Assembly (NCBI RefSeq): GCF_006345805.1
Contig: NW_021826592.1
Span: forward strand, 1-12,468
DNA length: 12,468 nt
Reading direction: 5' to 3'
From: Octopus sinensis
Taxonomy: Eukaryota
Shown piece after piece: positions 1-9,394 of the stretch. The stretch's first letter is position 1. Each line of letters opens with the position of its first letter. Under the pieces are notes generated by a model that searched no databases, had not been told where the DNA came from, and was given only the letters and a program-made list of their open reading frames with translations. A program made the translations under genes and the position numbers.

Positions 1-98
1 ACGGCGTTCACCACCAGGTCGCGATTAAGTGAAGGCCTCTTTGCAAACATATATAAGTTTTCCTAATGGCGTCTCCACTGATGTCGAAAATCGAACAG
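1..98 (-). repeat. Inverted copy of the host repeat unit that spans the uninterrupted (empty) insertion site
   Basis: 12-98 is the near-exact reverse complement of 220-307. The reverse complement of 1-17 (ctggtggtgaacgccgt) continues into the sequence found after the right TSD (ctggtggttaccgcccgt, 5834-5851). Confidence 0.9.
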
Positions 99-307
99 GG
101 CTATAAAGCTACAGTAACACCCCCTCCCCAATGTGGTTAGCCATGATAAGATGGCTTCTATACTTTACATTATCGAGCGATTACTGTTTCAATCTCATTC
201 TGAGATTTAATTATGCTTACTGTTCGTTTTTCGACATCAGTGGCAGACGCCATTAGAAAAACTTATATATGTTTGCAAAGAGCCTTCACTTTCATCGCGA
301 CCTGGTG
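98..307 (+). mobile_element. Left part of a ~356-bp HHR-bearing non-autonomous repeat (PLE pLTR or retrozyme-like), split by the Tx1 insertion
   Basis: 98-166 recurs identically at 5986-6054. Removing the retrotransposon and one TSD joins 98-307 to 5840-5985, giving a 356-bp unit followed by a 69-bp restart. The family assignment is inferred from the HHR and the inverted plus partial-tandem layout. Confidence 0.6.
290..307 (+). repeat. Left target-site duplication (tttcatcgcgacctggtg, 18 bp)
   Basis: An identical 18-mer lies at 5822-5839, directly after aataaagaaaa. Confidence 0.93.
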
Positions 308-559
308 TTTTTTGAATTTTTCCTCGGCGTATACCAATATTTTTCTGTTGCTGCAAATCGTTGTGTGAGTTCGTTTCCGTTTGTCTACTCTGTCGTGTTA
401 CAAGTAATATCATTGTTGAACTGTTTTTGACCCAGTAATTTTCGCCCCTCGGGGTAGAAAATTTCTGTGTGCTGTTTTGTGTGAACTCTTAACCTGTATA
501 GGTTATTTTTGGAAAAAAAAAATTCTCTTGTCATTTGTGACAAGTTTGTGTTGTCTAAT

Positions 560-2072
560 ATGGAATTAGACTTAAGTTCAAAAAAAGACTTTCCCGAGAT
601 GGGAGAAAGTATAACAACTGTTAAACAAAAGGAAACACAGACAAAACCCAGTTTTTCAGACGCCGTAGGTGGCGAAGTCGAAGAAATGGAGGTATCAATG
701 GAAAGATTATTCAAGTTTAGATCGCTGGTGCAAAAAAGTGGCGAAGAAACACGATTGGTACCGCCCCCCGAAACTATACAAGCAATAAAGGAAAAAATGG
801 TCACCTACAGGGTGTACAATATCAAGGAAAAACGAATGACCGACGTGAAAAACGAAATGGTCGAAAAGTGTATGGCTCCAATATGGAGTAAAGTTAGTCA
901 TGTCAACCGAGGTGCAAGAAGCGCTACACAGTGGAGGCGCATTTTGAAACGGCGGAAGTAGCAAGGCAAATTTCGACACAAACGTTGAAAAACGAGAGTA
1001 TAATACTGCTACCCTTATATTTAGGATGCAGAACCGCAAAAGTGACCCTAGAAGATATACCAACGGGCTACGACGTGATGTGGGCGGCAACAGCGGTCAT
1101 TTTTGATGTTGAATCAAAATTGACAATTTTAGTATGAAGAGAAAAATTGCAAAACACTGGAGAGGCCAGCAGCTGGAGATGATAATCCAGGCGGAAAATG
1201 CGACGTTGGAAAGCCTACCAGACAGAGTCTTCGTGGGGGAGGGGCACTCCATACGAGTTTCGGTGGAAGGACGCAGGCCCAGATGTTTTAAGTGCGGGCA
1301 AAAGGGCCACGTTCGCTCCGTTTGCACAAAAAAAAATAATGCGGGCAACGCCCCCCCACAAAACGCTGTGAAGAACGCAGAAAGCAGCAAAGTGGAGAAA
1401 AAAGTAACGGCTGGCGAAAACAAGGAGGAAAAAATAAACAGGTCGAACTCCAAAAAGGAGGAAGACAAGAACGAAATGCAAAATGAGAAAGGAAAGGATG
1501 AGGAAAATAATGCAACAAAAACAAATAAACAAGAAGACATGGAATTTACGAACGTGTCCAACAAAAGGAAAAAATCCATCACCCCTGACTCCCCACCCGT
1601 ATCAAAAAAAAAAACAACGCAGACGAACAAATTAAAATATTCTCCAATCCCACCCCGGCGGTACTACACTTATAGGCCAGCACTTTAACAAACCCCACCC
1701 CCCAACTGTAAAAGGGTTTAAACCCAACGAAAAATTATTGCATACACCACAAAGAACGTGAGAGTAGAAACATGGGTGAAAGCAAGTACGCTGATCAGGT
1801 GCTACAAAGCGACCGAGAAGGAAGCGGAGTGGCGATATGGAAGGGTCGGCGAAGAAGGATGGAAAGACAAAACCTTACAAAGCCACGTAAAAGCCGGCTT
1901 CATTAAGGATGTCACCCAGGAGGTGACAACTGGGAATTACCCGTTAGCCCGCAGCCACACCAACCCAGAGCCCGGTGGCAACGCCGGTGAAACACCCAGC
2001 AGCAACGGCGAGTGGGGGGGAGACAGGCAGAAAGAATCTGTCAGGCTCCCTCTCGCAACCGTGAGTAAATAA
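560..2072 (+). pseudogene. ORF1, gag-like nucleic-acid-binding protein with a CX2CX4HX4C zinc knuckle; frameshifted as given
   Basis: ATG at 560. Consecutive ORF fragments 509-961, 931-1137, 1134-1688 and 1758-2072. CFKCGQKGHVRSVC at 1284-1325 is followed by a K/E/N-rich region. The last stop lies 15 bp before the ORF2 ATG. Continuity across 1688-1758 is uncertain. Confidence 0.8.
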
Positions 2073-2087
2073 TTTTCTTTTTTCTCG

Positions 2088-5000
2088 ATGATTAAGTTAG
2101 GTTGTATAAATGTGCGTGGAATGGGATCGAAATGGAAACAGGCTTGTTTTCGTGACGACCTCATTTCACATAGAATCGAAGTAGCTATTGTTACCGAGTC
2201 CAAGATGAAGGGACCCCAAGCGTTCTCACCACTTCTCAATGGTTACGAGAAATTTATTTCTCCTAGCCGAGGGGGAGGTGCAGGCGTGGCAGTTCTTTTC
2301 AGGAAGAACTTGGACTTACAGGTAAGTACTGTCTTTTTGGACCCAGAAGGTAGGCTGGTTGTCCTAGATGTGACGCACGTGAGTAAGCAGTCCTTCAGGT
2401 TGGTGGCTGTCTACGCTCCTAACGGACGTGGGCAGACCGGTTTTTATCGGGAACTGGAGCACTTTCTAGTGACGTCCAAAACGGTAGTCTTGGTAGGGGA
2501 TTTCAACACCATTCTCGATGCGCGGGTGGATGGTGTAGGCTCGAGCGATAGGAAGGGGAATCCTGGCCTCAAGGCTCTACTAGCGAGCTTTAATCTAGTA
2601 GACCGTTTTCGACTGGATGAGCCGAACGTTCCACAGTGGACGTGGAGTAATAACGACGGCTCACTCAGATCGTACATAGATAGAGTATTTGTTAAGGAAC
2701 GAGATAGGAATAGTGTTAGCTGTCCACAATTCTCTGTTGTGCCTTACACGGATCACAAACTTGTAACGTGTGAGGTACATGTAGATAAATGCCATAGACA
2801 AGGTCCCGGGTACTGGAAGATGAACAAGTCTATTTTGACCTGTGAAGCTTTCCGTACCCGGATTAAGGAATTAGTACAGAGGGCATTATGTGGCACCATC
2901 ATTAATAATAGATGGTGGCTCGCCCTCAAAAGAGCCATCCGTTTGGAGTCCATTAGATTTAGCAAGCAGCTAAGTTTAGATAGGACTAGAATAGAGGGCG
3001 AATTAGTTAAGAACTTAGACGAGGCTATGGAATCTGGCTGTGCATCCGGAGTGTTGGCAGCGAGAGCGGTATTGTACCGTCACCTCAACGCCAAGCACGA
3101 GGGGTGTAGAGTCAGAGCTAAGTTACGTGCAGGAAAACGAGAAGGTATTAACGTTGCCGGATGGGCCCGTCGTGAGGAGAGTCAGAAGGGCAAAAAGTCC
3201 TGTATTATGTCCTTAACTGACGAGCAGGACCGCAAGATCTATGGACAGGAGGAGATGCAGAAGGTCCTTCACCAGCATTTCGCACGGCTGTTTGGGGGCG
3301 GTGGCCCGCTCGAGCGTGGGGAGACCTTAAAGGACTTCCTAGCTGGTGGGCCTCGGCTCTCGGCAGGTGAGGCGGAGTGCTGTGAAGGATCGATCTCTCC
3401 CGCAGAGGTAAGAGGGGTTATGGCCGAGTGCGCCGGGGAAAAGTCACCGGGATTGGATGGTCTACCCTATGAATTTTATTGTTGTATGCCGGACTTGTTC
3501 GGGGACATACTGGCAAGCGTCTATGCAAACTGGCAACAGAATGGGAGGATTCCCAGCTCTGTGAGTCGGGGAGTTGTGACGCTGGTCCAGAAAGACCCGA
3601 GCAAGGGGACAGTATTAGTAATTACAGGCCCATAACTCTACTTAATGTAGAGTTTAAGATTTTGGCCAAGGTGTTAGCAAAAAGGTTGACGGCTGTCGTG
3701 AAGAAACTTGTCGGGAAGGCACAGACATGTGCAATCCCAGGCAGGTCGATCCAGGATAATCTTCACCTTCTCCGCTACACTATAGATAGGGTCGGGAAAT
3801 TAGACGGCAAAGGAGGGGCATTGGTCCATTTAGACCAAAGTAAAGCGTTTGATAGGGTGACCATCGGTACTTGGCGGCGGTTCTCGAAGCGGCTGGGCTG
3901 GGCCCTGGCTTCTGCGGGTGGATCTCAGCTATGTACAGCGGCATCAAGTCCACAGTCCAGATAAACGGTTACCTAACGGAGCCGTTTTCGATCAAGCGTT
4001 CAGTTCGACAAGGGTGCCCCTTGTCCCCGCTCCTGTATGTTTTGGCTCTTGAGCCATTGCTGCGGAAGCTGGAGAAGTTGGGAGGCAACCCTAATGAATC
4101 GATCGATGCGGTAAGTCTGTTTCTGCCTATGCGGATGACGTCACCCTCATCGTGTCCAACGGAACACAGCTACCTCGGGTAGTAGGTGCTCTCCATAGAT
4201 ACGAAGCGGTGGCAGGGGCAAAAGTTAACAGGGACAAGTCCATCGGTTTGCGCCTCGGCACCTGGAGGAACAAGCAGATACCGTCCAGTGTTGTTGGACA
4301 CTGGACGGATGGTCCTGTTAAATTGCTCGGAGTATGGTTTGGTCCAGACTCCCAGACGGAGAAGAATTGGAGCGAGGTAACGAGCAAGGTGGATGCCATA
4401 GTACGGAAGTGGTCCGGAAGGCATCTTTCCTTGAAAGGGAGGGCGGAGGTGGCACAGATGTTTATAGCCTCTGTCGTCACCTACCGCCTGACCGTCGTGC
4501 CTTGCCCCGATTCGTGGTTAAACAAGTTGGAACGACTTCTTTTCCGCTTTTTGTGGAAAGGAGGAAAGCCACTTGTGAGACGCTCCGTGTGTTGCCAGGA
4601 ACCGCTAAAGGGTGGACTGGGGATGCCTTGGCTAATGATGCGCAAGCATGCGTTGAGGCTGAGACACCTCTGGTGTTACCTGGAGGATGATAAGGTGTGG
4701 AGTTCGCTGGCAGAGGAATTCTTCCCGCGACCGGCCTCTATGGAGGGATTTACACCCGGTCTCATTAAAGGACGTAAACTGACTTCATGGCAGAAGGAGT
4801 GCCGACAGGCACTCTGGCTGATCCACAAGATGGGTAAGGCCGGCAGCGGGAATACCACCTCGGTGTTCTATAAAGGGCTGGTAGGAGGAAAAAATGACGA
4901 CGTCCTAGGAAGGGCTCTGGGGTTCGATGAGGATCAACTCTCCAACCTGTTTAAGAAGACTTTCAGGCCGGGGTATTTGGATAATTACCAAAAATCCCTG

Positions 5001-5474
5001 ACCTGGCAGTGCTATAGGAATGCATTACCTGTTCGCGAGAAGTTATCCAGGCACGGAATGTCAGTGCCACCGACGTGTCCAAGATGTGGGTTGGACGATG
5101 AAACCGTTCAACACGCTTTGTACAATGTCGGGAGCTGTCAGGCTTGATAAGTTACGTGGAACACGTGTTGTCGCATCTGGGACGAGTACAGCTGTCGGCT
5201 GGATCTATGATTAAGATGATACCGCCAACTGGACTCTCAAAGGAAGGTAAGGCTTGTTTTTACTGTACGGTGGCAGTATTGAAAGAGTGTGTATGGAGAA
5301 CTAGAGTGGAAGGTCTAGTGAAAGGGTCCTTTATCTCTGGCCCCGGTTTGTTAAAATACTTCGGATATCATCTGAAGAGCAAGATGGGGTTGGAGAAGAG
5401 GAGCCTGCCACAGAAAGTATATGGAACGTTGGAAGGATGTGATGAGAAAGGTGGGTGAGAGTAACCCAGCTTAA
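2088..5474 (+). pseudogene. ORF2 polyprotein: AP-like endonuclease, reverse transcriptase and C-terminal zinc-binding domain; frameshifted as given
   Basis: APE motifs INVRG, VTES, VYAP, GDFN, IDRVF and TDH. RT motifs KSPGLDGLPYEFY, NYRPITLLN, DQSKAFDRV, RQGCPLSP, YADD (4128-4139) and KLLGV. C-terminal CPRC..ETVQH. Frameshifts near 3608, 3858, 4100 and 5120. It ends at 5458, or at 5474 if a further shift restores ...YMERWKDV. Confidence 0.92.
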
Positions 5475-5639
5475 TCATCGAGGAAAGGAATCGGCTGCTG
5501 GGATTTATAGGCTGCCGGGTTCAAAATTGAAACTGGTACCTCCCATTACCTTTCACTGTACATAACTGTTTAAAATAAAGAATTAATAATAAAAAAAAGA
5601 AAAGAAAAGAAAACATACGCACTAAAAGTTCTCGTGATA

Positions 5640-5698
5640 AAGGCAAAAGTAAGCCAAGGTTTCGTTTCAAGGCAAAGTAAGCCAAGTTTTCGTTCAAG
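5640..5698 (+). repeat. Imperfect ~28-bp tandem duplication in the 3' UTR
   Basis: aaggcaaaagtaagccaaggtttcgtttc (5640-5668) is followed by aaggcaaagtaagccaagttttcgttc (5669-5695). Confidence 0.85.
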
Positions 5699-5810
5699 TG
5701 ACATAAAATTTTAATTTTGTAATTTTTTAAATTTCATTCGAACTCGCATAGCATTTTTGTAACTGTTTTGTCCTGTAATGTATCCATTCTATGTTAGATC
5801 TATTGATCAT

Positions 5811-5821
5811 AATAAAGAAAA
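5811..5821 (+). terminator. Polyadenylation signal and short A-tail of the retrotransposon
   Basis: aataaagaaaa lies immediately before the right TSD. Confidence 0.75.
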
Positions 5822-5839
5822 TTTCATCGCGACCTGGTG
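5822..5839 (+). repeat. Right target-site duplication
   Basis: Identical to 290-307. Confidence 0.93.
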
Positions 5840-6054
5840 GTTACCGCCCGTTGACGAGGGACAACAAACCCGAAACTAGTTCGAGCGTATCACTCAGGCT
5901 TGCGAGGAAGGGATGGCCTCCCTTTGCAATTACTCCAAGGACACTGATATTGTGTCTAAAGCCAGCTAGAAACGAAGATCTCTTGGGGCTATAAAGCTAC
6001 AGTAACACCCCCTCCCCAATGTGGTTAGCCATGATAAGATGGCTTCTATACTTT
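5840..6054 (+). mobile_element. Right part of the ~356-bp HHR-bearing repeat plus a 69-bp partial second unit
   Basis: It continues the empty-site sequence seen inverted at 1-17, and 5986-6054 equals 98-166. Confidence 0.6.
5842..5889 (+). ncRNA. Minimal type I hammerhead ribozyme motif (U3 variant, GUU triplet)
   Basis: Stem I cgcccg/cgagcg (one mismatch), core TTGACGA at 5851-5857, stem II ggg-acaacaaa-ccc, GAAAC at 5872-5876, palindromic stem III region aactagtt, predicted cleavage after 5881. Confidence 0.65.
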
Positions 6055-7735
6055 TGAAGACTGAGGGGTTCGAATGTCCTGTCCATGTTTATTGTATCGT
6101 CTTCTATGAGTTATACGTTCTTGCATGTTGTATTTTTCTACATACCTTAACATATATTCAGGCGCCCCGTACCCCCTTTATCATTAATGTGAACACATAT
6201 CTTAATAATTGGTACGACTCTCTGTTGTCTCTCTCTCTTCATTCTACTTTTCTCTTTCATCTTCTCTTGCCTCTGATCTTTGGTCTAGTCTTCCACTACC
6301 CTCCTATTCTTTGTCTCGCTCTGCACTCACAGGTCTCTTTCGACCCCATCCCACTCCTCTCTGTTCCTTTTCTTCTCCTCTGATTCTTCTTTCTCTCTTC
6401 CTCTCTTGTGCGTGTGTCCCTTTTCTCTCTCTCTCTTCCTTGCTTCTCTTTCTTTTCTTTCCCTCTTCTCTGTCACGTGACTGTTGGCCGAAATCTGCCT
6501 TTCAGCTCCTGACCCTCGTCGTGTTGACATCGTTGTTCTTCGTCCGCCGCTATAAAGGCTTTTTCAATGCGCCAGAGAAAAAATTTGTTTGCTTGTTATC
6601 AGTCGTAAGGACTTGTTGTTTTCACCGTTAATGCTTCTGTATTTCTTGTTTCTGTATTCCATTAGTGTTTTTTGTTTTTATATCTGTCCCTTTTGCTGTC
6701 CTGGTGTTCGTATGCATTCGATCCTTCTTCCAGGAAATCTACGCTTCCAGCTTAGTTTTTCTTGGAGGGCTGGCCGTGATCTAGTAATCTCAAGATTAAT
6801 CAGCCGAAATTACTACGATGATCCGGTTCTTGACTGAAGACTGAGGGGTTCGAATGTCCTGTCCATGTTTATTGTATCGTCTTCTATGAGTTATACGTTC
6901 TTGTCCATGTTGTATTTTTCTACATACCTTAACATATATTCCAGGCGCCCCGTACCCCCTTTATCATTAATGTGAACACATATTCTTAATAATTGGTACG
7001 ACTCTCTCTGTTTGTCTCTCTCTCTCTCTCATTTCTACTTTCTCTCTATTCATCTTCTCTTGCCTCTGATCCTTTGTCTAGTCTTCCACTACCCTCCTAT
7101 TTCTTTGTCTCGCTCTGCACTCACAGGTCATTCTTCGACACCCATCCCTTCTCCTCTCTGATTCCTTCTTTCTCTCTCTTCTCTCTCTTTGTTGCGTTTT
7201 GTCCCCCTTTTCTCTCTCTCTCTCTCCTTTTCTCTTGCTTCTTTCTTTTCTTTTTCTTTTCCCTCTTCTCTGTCACGTGACTGTTGCCGAAATCTGCCTT
7301 TCAGCTCCTGACCCTCGTCGTGTTAACATCGTTTTTCTTCGTCCGCCGCTATAAAGGCTTTTTCCAATGCACCAGAAAAAATTTGTTTGCTTGTTATCAG
7401 TCGTAAGACACTTGTTGTTTTCACAATGCGTTAATGCTTCTGTATTTCTTGTTCTGTATTCCATTATTGTTTTTTGTTTTTTTATATCTGTCCCTTTTGC
7501 TGTCCTGGTGTTCGTATGCATTCGATCCTTCTTCCAGGAATCTACGCTTCCAGCTTAGTTTTTCTTGGAGGGCTGGCCGTGATCTAGTAATCTCAAGATT
7601 AATCAGCCGAAATTACTACGATGATCCGGTTCTTGACTGAAGACTGAGGGGTTCGAATGTCCTGTCCATGTTTATTGTATCGTCTTCTATGAGTTATACG
7701 TTCTTGTCCATGTTGTATTTTTCTACATACCTTAA
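6055..7735. repeat. Tandem repeat of ~780-803-bp units (two full copies plus a 98-bp partial copy) with a CT-rich core
   Basis: tgaagactgaggggttcgaatgtcc starts at 6055, 6835 and 7638. The last copy runs into (TA)n at ~7735. Confidence 0.93.
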
Positions 7736-7822
7736 TATATATATATATTAATATATATATATATATATAATATATATATATATAATATATATATATATAC
7801 ATACATTAATAAATACATACAT
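7734..7822. repeat. (TA)n/(TACA)n microsatellite
   Basis: Seen directly in the sequence. Confidence 0.95.
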
Positions 7823-8144: not shown

Positions 8145-8540
8145 TACAGTTAAGTTGAAACATGTGATACGGAGAAGTGCACAATTGACGACAAAGCATT
8201 TGTGGAGTAAATGAAGGGCTATTTCGATTAAGTGACATGTCTTGCGTCTGTTTGGAAGATTCCAGGCCCTAATCTTGTCGTGGAAAAGTGAGTGGAGGAT
8301 ATGTGATTCTTGAACGCACCAAAAAGCTGTCAGTGGATATGATTTCTTTTGCGGTTGTCGTCGCTGCCGCTACAACGCTGAACAATCATGAGACATAGGA
8401 ACTACATCTATGTGACAAATTAAGCCTGAGGGCGCGCTCAACAGTACCACACGAGAGAAATCTACATGAAAGAAATGACGAGGTAAGGCGGGGGATTGAC
8501 AAAGAAGCGCTTGAAAACAACACTGCCATGCGATATTTCG

Positions 8541-8949
8541 GTTGTGAGTACAACTCAGCTCCCAAACGAAAACAATTCTGCATGCAGCATTGGGGTACGC
8601 GAGGTCACACTACGAAAGGATGAAAGTCAAAGTCGACCTCGGCGGAATTTGAACTCAGAACGTAACGGCAGACGAAATACCGTTAGACATTTCGCCCGGC
8701 GTGCTAACGCGTCTGCCAGCTCGCCGCCTTCGATGCCTGGAATATTGAAGTTTCCATTTATCGAGCAACACACAGAGTCTCTAACAAGAGTGGTTGGGTC
8801 ACGTAATGGTGGATTGCTGACGTGGTTGGGGATCAATAATCGTGGCTCAACTGTGCACTCCGCGTAAACTGCGTGCGACCGCTGTGAAGGATACTCAGCT
8901 CCTGAACGAAAACAATTCTGCATGCAGCGACCGGGGGCGCAAGGTCACA
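8541..8949 (+). repeat. Diverged ~69-bp direct repeat pair (8541-8609 and 8881-8949), 340 bp apart
   Basis: Shared actcagctcc..aacgaaaacaattctgcatgcagc...ggtcaca. Confidence 0.85.
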
Positions 8950-9394
8950 TTAAGGACATGGTCTCTAACTAACGTGGTTGGGTCTTAGACACAATAAATT
9001 AGTAGGTTAATGTACATATGATATTTTGTTTTGTAATCAATAGCTGAAGAATATTTGCATGGACTTTGTCTATGCTTAGACGGAAGACTTTGATACTGAA
9101 GCTAAAAGAAAATAGTTGAATAATTGCTCAGGATTTAATATATTTTAGTATATTTTTCATAATAAACAAAGTGCATTCCAAACGGTTTTTATTCCAACAA
9201 ATTTCTGCCTATGGTATTACGGGAACAGGATATTATTGCTACCACTTAGACAAGGCAGTTTGAAGTCTACATCAGTTCATCCATTTAATACAACCTACTT
9301 ATATCATTTCAGTAGCTGCTTTTGCCAGTTTGAACAGAAGCAATGTGTGGAACATGCGGTAGTCGAACGTATCTCAGGAAATAGGGTATTCTGC

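Follow-up and report, generated by a model that had tools for sequence, protein, structure and literature searches.

A probable dispersed hammerhead retrozyme family with a U1/U2-type promoter motif in Octopus sinensis and a site-specific LINE at its predicted transcription start

Metazoan non-LTR retrozymes, known from coral, mussel and axolotl, are tandem non-coding units of 170–400 nt (PMC7229834; bioRxiv 10.64898/2026.07.22.740005; these and most papers below are cited from their accessible parts), with one type I hammerhead and no LTR, PBS or PPT (PMC7229834). They coexist with Penelope-like elements (PLEs) that have been proposed as their mobilisers, while the transcription of animal retrozymes and the identity of the enzyme that moves them are open questions in the field (PMC7229834; bioRxiv 10.64898/2026.07.22.740005). 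PLE insertions are characterized by 5' truncation, partial tandems, an inverted 5'-truncated copy, a one-sided tail, a hammerhead and a bias towards microsatellites (PMC8557442, PMC4209133), the tail being 30–40 bp long (PMC8557442). Newt satellite 2 is a hammerhead repeat cited as using an internal snRNA-type Pol II promoter (PMC2220036), with a palindromic stem III that needs a dimer (PMC4209133). Tx1-clade LINEs, with an AP endonuclease and a CCHC ORF1, insert at one fixed target in a multicopy element, also in tandem: Tx1L in Tx1D, Tx1-Mar in Mariner-N4 and Keno in U2 (PMC4494074, PMC4640811); a tree legend in PMC4494074 also lists "satellites" as a target. R2, which has a restriction-like endonuclease and uses Pol I, relies on the promoter of its target, and co-transcribed target sequence aids and strengthens its site-specific integration (PMC4494074).

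The window analyzed here is the whole 12,468-nucleotide stretch of O. sinensis contig NW_021826592.1, starting at contig base 1. From its sequence alone, a 356-bp non-coding unit had been reconstructed as the sum of 98–307 and 5840–5985, followed by an exact 69-bp restart. The sum and the absence of coding sequence held, positions 98–166 are identical to 5986–6054 over 69 bp and not beyond, and the three hairpins that had been named were present at their positions. The window copy of the retrozyme comprises 98–290 plus 5823–5985 and belongs to a 357-bp dispersed non-coding repeat family. Its halves are separated by a 5.5-kb LINE flanked by a 17-bp duplication. The joined form exists uninterrupted elsewhere in the genome as 357-bp tandems (G000:C19, loci L003/L004); the window copy is 1 bp shorter than this natural unit. 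The features of the window are the following:

1–97, minus strand: inverted arm of the retrozyme, unit ~286–357 and 1–28, matching the unit at 92%
98–290, plus strand: forward arm with a 5'-truncated start and a promoter-like region, unit 164–357, matching the natural unit in L004 at 98%
234–243, plus strand: PSE-like motif ACATCAGTGG, with ATCAGT at −58 from the predicted +1
264–270, plus strand: TATA-like run, ~30 bp ahead of the predicted +1, a feature that U6 genes also have at this place
291–307, plus strand: 5' copy of the 17-bp duplication, with the predicted transcription start at A294
308–5822, plus strand: probable L1/Tx1-like LINE, full length, frameshifted in the window copy
~485–1688, plus strand: LINE ORF1 with a CCHC knuckle
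2073–5458, plus strand: LINE ORF2 with AP endonuclease, RT and zf-RVT
5823–5839, plus strand: 3' copy of the 17-bp duplication, unit 1–17
5823–6054, plus strand: remainder of the forward arm, unit 1–232, including the 69-bp redundancy at 5986–6054
5836–5894, plus strand: predicted type I hammerhead

The inverted arm is interrupted by the start of the contig, and the forward arm ends 3–8 bp before the usual short end (unit 235–240) because another repeat is joined there. Positions 294–307 may represent the RNA leader of the LINE.

The single hammerhead proposed for the unit was recovered as an Rfam HH9 match at 5833–5903, with a score of 27.4 bits (E 0.00027 in a 1.4-kb scan), which is below the gathering score of 52. 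The predicted structure on the plus strand is as follows:

5845–5850 with 5882–5887, and 5836–5840 with 5890–5894, plus strand: stem I
5851–5857, plus strand: core TTGACGA
5858–5861 with 5868–5871, plus strand: stem II
5872–5875, plus strand: GAAA
5875–5880, plus strand: stem III, the palindrome ACTAGT
between 5881 and 5882, plus strand: predicted cut

The core of the window family is non-canonical, with U3 opposite G8 and a GUU triplet, and the window copy has one additional mismatch in stem II. In 15 hand-picked diverse copies, the stems covaried: 94.1% of cells were paired, and 7 of the 18 pairs had changed on both sides. None of 500 shuffles scored as high, a comparison that overstates significance since the 15 rows are related and the structure was drawn from them, and the best slid control had 48% paired. 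The stems are thus conserved among homologues. The monomer fold had a z of −4.0. Among 80 distinct contexts, the core was U3/G8 with U17 in 48, C3–G8 in 20 and U3–A8 in six, and the stem III insert was palindromic in 74. Retrozyme family B has the C3–G8 form, with a GUC triplet. The stem III pairs were invariant across the 15-copy set, and the loop is so short that all of them would form only between two hammerheads. A palindromic helix III is regarded as a mark of dimeric cleavage and U3–A8 as natural covariation (PMC4209133). The accessible part of PMC3088659 mentions U4C and has no match for C3U or GUU. Cleavage in the window family is therefore likely to be dimer-dependent and perhaps weak; the U3/G8 core with U17, which counts against efficient activity, may cut poorly.

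A genome search with window positions 5824–6054 as query gave 1,979 first-look candidates, and the 40 that were scored contained 41 near-full matches, 97–100% identical. The unit is thus multicopy, and tandem and permuted copies were found as well, the 357-bp tandem period appearing in L003/L004 and other loci. The query demanded unit 1–232, so shorter copies could not show up. We surveyed the arms at 24 distinct empty loci, a set that excludes the window copy, two loci filled by the LINE and three duplicates. The forward arms were 245–904 bp long and had variable 5' ends, so the 69-bp restart is not a fixed feature of the family. We had also considered the 69-bp repeat as a terminal repeat of the LINE; the variable arm lengths and the existence of empty units rule this out. 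All 24 forward arms stopped at either of two fixed sites, separated by about 45 bp: unit 235–240 (13 loci) or 280–288 (11 loci); the L012 end was mapped as 272 through a mapping gap and has the end sequence of 283. An inverted arm was present at nine loci, in seven of which it ended at the other fixed site. TA or ATA repeats surround twelve of the 24 loci, poly(A) is absent from all of them, and 9–14 bp duplications were seen by eye at three. Fixed ends, 5' truncation, head-to-head arms, a one-sided tail and the lack of poly(A) are the traits expected from PLE-type copying. Reverse transcription around a circular or tandem RNA, as had been suggested for the locus, fits these data, because the arms extend across the predicted cleavage site and re-enter the promoter region; the template would have been a circle or an uncleaved multimer, which are indistinguishable here.

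The hexamer ATCAGT occurs once on the plus strand of the unit. It was found at −57 to −61 in the upstream regions of all 15 U1 and all 19 U2 genes (a 20th U2 locus, LINE-filled, was left out), and one U2 class has ACATCAGTGG in common with the unit, at the same offset. At the LINE target sites, the A of ATCG lies 57–61 bp behind ATCAGT. Of 43 distinct sequences upstream of the LINE, 31 had the hexamer at −57 to −60; the other 12 were array junctions, the U2 case, rearranged copies and single-base variants. The unit thus shares a PSE-like motif with U1 and U2 at the same distance from the predicted +1, and is likely transcribed from an internal U1/U2-type promoter. A Pol III promoter of U6 type, raised by the TATA-like run, was rejected: none of 15 U6 matches, several of them probable pseudogenes, had ATCAGT at this position. 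The TATA-like box at −30 and the T-run at the LINE start would also be compatible with Pol III, whose transcripts would end at the LINE. Promoters of snRNA type normally make short RNAs, which counts against their use by a LINE. In contigs from four runs that we guessed to be RNA, retrozyme coverage was far deeper than LINE coverage, for which copy number alone would suffice.

The LINE has two ORFs, and its ORF2, with AP endonuclease, RT and a C-terminal zinc-binding domain, completes the domain set of the L1 clade; the zf-CCHC match in ORF1 was just under the cut-off (E 0.00054). The element begins with a T-run and a 5' UTR of about 170 bp and ends near an AATAAA without a poly(A) tail. Copies L239 and L250 have an open ORF2 frame of 1134 aa. 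It is probably an L1/Tx1-like element, placed by its traits: it combines a CCHC knuckle in ORF1, a Tx1 character among animal L1-clade elements (PMC5203782), with sequence-specific insertion. No named Tx1 reference appeared among the 120 ORF2 homologues listed or among the atlas matches, and the nearest named homologue among those 120 was from Argonauta hians. In a tree of 30 full-length copies, most insertions in retrozyme family B fell in an older group (support 1.0), and L252 and L246, also in family B, were in or beside a young family-A group (midpoint root, short branches).

Insertion of the LINE is site-specific. All 46 scored 3' junctions, collected with LINE-end queries without target sequence and from fetched stretches, lay 2–5 bases before an ATCG. 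A retrozyme-type site, or an array on one, was the target in 45, including L122, in which the 3' side is disrupted after eight bases. Two rows were dropped from the set: L099, with only a 25-bp match, and L050, which was missed by the regular expression and is on target. The remaining junction was at the first base or bases of a U2 gene (Rfam score 183.6 bits). Keno inserts inside U2, and we met no insertion of this type among the 46 junctions. The LINE was present in one of 20 U2 loci viewed and in none of 15 U1 loci. Arrays of two or three LINEs separated by a single duplication were found (C6, C22, C9, C2), and near-identical LINEs occupy retrozyme families that are only 72–81% alike. In an exact 3'-end search, 30 of 31 copies kept a precise 5' junction; L121, L125 and L135 lack the 5' end and the upstream target, for which deletion or hitch-hiking would account. 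A further LINE family, 82% alike, also inserts at the ATCG site, on the same base in 29 of 30 loci, a count biased upward by the 17 target bases in the query.

The duplication, spanning about −3 to +14, offered a way to follow the origin of the 5' end. At empty sites, the allele at +6 follows the upstream haplotype in 18 of 18 cases. Both ends were available for 41 insertions: the duplication copies were identical in 28, which say nothing on the leader, and different in 13. Five of these 13 differ at +6 alone, and in each the 5' copy breaks the haplotype link that the downstream-most copy keeps. L131 carries a family-B leader on a different target, which leaves seven that are either disrupted or not informative. 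At the U2 insertion, a 14-bp duplication of U2 sequence comes first, and behind it stands an additional retrozyme leader beginning at about +1. L246 and L252 have target-type 5' copies, with no family-A leader in their family-B targets. The donor-type 5' alleles and the extra leader at U2 suggest that transcription of the LINE likely begins at the host promoter and that its RNA carries a host leader.

Taking these observations together, we consider it probable that the unit is a non-LTR retrozyme that encodes no protein, with an internal U1/U2-type promoter likely driving its transcription and a PLE enzyme likely copying it, and that the LINE inserts at its predicted start and likely borrows its promoter. 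In this scheme, the A of ATCG, about 59 bp downstream of the PSE-like motif, would be the Pol II start site. By analogy with known retrozymes, successive hammerheads would cleave the RNA of a tandem locus, probably by forming a double hammerhead through the palindromic stem III, and the resulting 357-nt monomer would be circularized with the promoter sequence inside. With the promoter carried inside the circle, the upstream element would survive retrotransposition. A PLE enzyme would prime at unit 235–240 or 280–288 and copy round the circle or along a multimer. The LINE, landing directly behind the promoter, would make an RNA that starts with 14 host bases, and pairing of these with a new target would give the precise full-length 5' joins; we infer such leader pairing because of the donor-type alleles and the U2 insertion.

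The locus had been described as either a retrozyme or similar to the pseudo-LTR (pLTR) of a PLE, and the two halves of that description fared differently. Its units join head to tail with no ORF between them and no LTR structure, as in a retrozyme, and a PLE ORF, which a pLTR would adjoin, is not attached: the suggested linkage to an RT/GIY-YIG ORF was absent from 29 unit loci with 1.5-kb flanks, and flank ORFs were unrelated (8/12 scanned). It is very unlikely that the unit is the pLTR of an autonomous PLE and its copies are heavily truncated insertions. The fixed ends, the tail and the inverted arms are all typical of PLEs, a PLE with a hammerhead-like pLTR exists in this genome (L221), and 30 of the 1,979 candidates were viewed, which leaves this explanation some room. 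However, walking upstream from the fixed end always re-enters the unit, for up to 2.5 units, and the hammerhead helices have canonical sizes, not the minimal PLE form. No resemblance to the unit was seen in the L221 pLTR or in the 3' regions of the GIY-YIG loci viewed (30 of 147, a small sample), and neither those loci nor seven longer ones contained a pLTR resembling it or an autonomous PLE with its ends. The lack of such an autonomous element also counts against copying by a PLE. Diverged relatives lie near L192, L202/L224 and L223; none of them belongs to a pLTR. The relative in L223 was considered as proof of co-integration and rejected; it sits in a TA repeat, which separates it from the PLE. 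L005 has an RT fragment 1 kb away from the unit, again not joined to it. On this small sample, filing the unit as a retrozyme is better supported than as a pLTR.

For the LINE, a simpler account would be endonuclease preference alone, combined with an internal promoter of its own, the site lying at a transcription start through U2-targeting ancestry or by chance; the 5' allele mismatches would then reflect mutation, sporadic read-through or gene conversion. Both U2 and the retrozyme site contain TTYATCGC, which could be enough for an endonuclease, the 5' UTR could hold a promoter, and the 28 identical duplications and the target-type copies in L246 and L252 agree with this account. We nevertheless regard it as unlikely, since the families differ in target sequence beyond ATCG yet keep the spacing to the PSE-like motif, the five mismatches fall on one polymorphic base and always in the 5' copy, and the extra leader in the U2 insertion begins at about +1 and no further upstream. 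More improbable than either alternative above is a single entry of the LINE, with the composite then spread by the retrozyme machinery. Filled copies do have the same fixed 3' ends as empty ones, and L121 resembles a 5'-truncated composite. Hitch-hiking cannot explain the arrays in which one duplication separates neighbouring copies, the insertion in U2 or the spread of one LINE subfamily over retrozyme families 72–81% alike, and the second LINE family at the same base also argues against it.

If the LINE does borrow the retrozyme promoter, a three-tier parasite chain is conceivable, which we offer tentatively and think somewhat doubtful: a PLE enzyme would spread a retrozyme with an snRNA promoter inside its circle, and a Tx1-like LINE would owe both RNA ends to that retrozyme. 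The 14-nt target-matching leader would come from the promoter, and a tail-less, target-matching 3' end from the downstream hammerhead, whose predicted cut lies about 56 nt past +1, or from a cut in read-through target. No LINE copy has a poly(A) tail, so there is room, speculatively, for 3' processing in read-through target or at the hammerhead. If true, such a chain would explain the near-100% full-length, base-precise insertion, and the LINE could switch targets as new retrozyme families expand.

Compared with the systems described above, the retrozyme itself is of a known kind, and what sets it apart is the promoter motif together with the LINE that targets the predicted start. As in other metazoan non-LTR retrozymes, the 357-bp unit is tandem and non-coding, with one type I hammerhead, no LTR, PBS or PPT and PLEs in the same genome. 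It differs from them in occurring mostly as dispersed insertions of one to two units with two fixed 3' ends and head-to-head arms, and in its U3/G8 core with GUU and its U1/U2-type promoter motif. The word "promoter" and the name "Tx1" do not occur in the preprint bioRxiv 10.64898/2026.07.22.740005, and PMC13282606 makes no mention of hammerhead or retrozyme. On transcription and mobilization, the open points in the field, the octopus family supplies testable leads: a specific promoter motif and a pair of fixed priming sites. Newt satellite 2 resembles it in the hammerhead, the internal snRNA-type promoter and the dimer-requiring palindromic stem III, but belongs to another phylum and has another sequence, and the octopus promoter is predicted from the U1 and U2 genes of this genome; the accessible part of PMC2220036 mentions no targeting LINE. 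With PLEs the unit shares 5' truncation, partial tandems, the inverted 5'-truncated copy, the one-sided tail, the hammerhead and the microsatellite bias, whereas it has no ORF, a tail of about 45 bp and a hammerhead of canonical size.

The LINE resembles the Tx1-clade targeters in its AP endonuclease, its CCHC ORF1, its one fixed target in a multicopy element and its tandem insertion. Unlike theirs, its target is a hammerhead retrozyme at the predicted transcription start, and in contrast to that of Keno, its U2 insertion is at the first bases of the gene. Our literature search, with Repbase, subscription journals and supplements outside its scope, found no paper on a LINE targeting a hammerhead repeat or an snRNA start, so the element adds a target class that we did not find in print, namely the sites where transcription begins in a hammerhead retrozyme and in U2. 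The element places 5.5 kb at a single base and kept its 5' end intact in 30 of 31 copies sampled, which bears on how LINEs join their 5' ends and on tools for site-specific gene insertion. In the probable reliance on the promoter of its target and in the role suggested for co-transcribed target sequence, the LINE is like R2. It differs in being an AP-endonuclease element and in using, as predicted, an snRNA-type Pol II promoter inside another mobile element, and would thus be the AP-endonuclease counterpart of the R2 co-transcription strategy.

The LINE that interrupts the window's retrozyme has a predicted leader that begins much like a spliceosomal snRNA. This and two further features considered here are as follows.

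Window 294–305: U2/U1-like beginning of the predicted leader
Window 6055–7742: second non-coding element, built of 2.1 units of 780–803 bp in tandem
L221, 5936–6300: young Penelope-like element (PLE), with frames of 479 and 781 aa (RT and GIY-YIG)

The start of U2 is the same as that of the leader over the first five bases, and over the first six in the T allele, the variant at the polymorphic base +6. The first 12 bases of U1 match the T-allele leader in register at nine positions. This likeness might have survived from a promoter capture, or it might be due to chance. Instead of the PSE-like motif found upstream of U1 and U2, the U6 upstream regions (L161, L166, L169–L175) have a TATA box at −30 and, at about −77, the octamer-like motif ATGCAAAT.

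Different LINE families are stacked at the same retrozyme site (L227, L229–L233), with identities of about 82% in ORF2 and 64% in ORF1; locus L128 appears to have arisen by recombination between two of these families. In related retrozyme families (L260, L264, L266, L273, L282, L283 and L285) the hammerhead core is of the U3–A8 type, and the palindrome inserted in stem III is a different one (CGCG; CCGG in L276). The L221 PLE, whose terminal repeat contains a hammerhead-like motif, is a candidate partner of the retrozyme; comparison with the retrozyme unit revealed no sequence link between the two.

The contig is short, and frameshifts and homopolymer differences in window 308–5822 and 6055–7742 suggest that it contains sequencing errors, which makes any single-base feature of the window copy uncertain. 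Elsewhere in the window, two 60-bp copies (8553–8612 and 8893–8952; 83% identical), probably a decayed repeat, lie within a GC-richer stretch at about 8150–9000.

The 3' end of the window retrozyme directly adjoins the second tandem element, in which an Rfam scan gave no match and no convincing hammerhead was found. A genome search returned 1,687 first-look candidates for this element. Its arrays are 5'-truncated and most share one fixed 3' end, and in both respects the element resembles the retrozyme.
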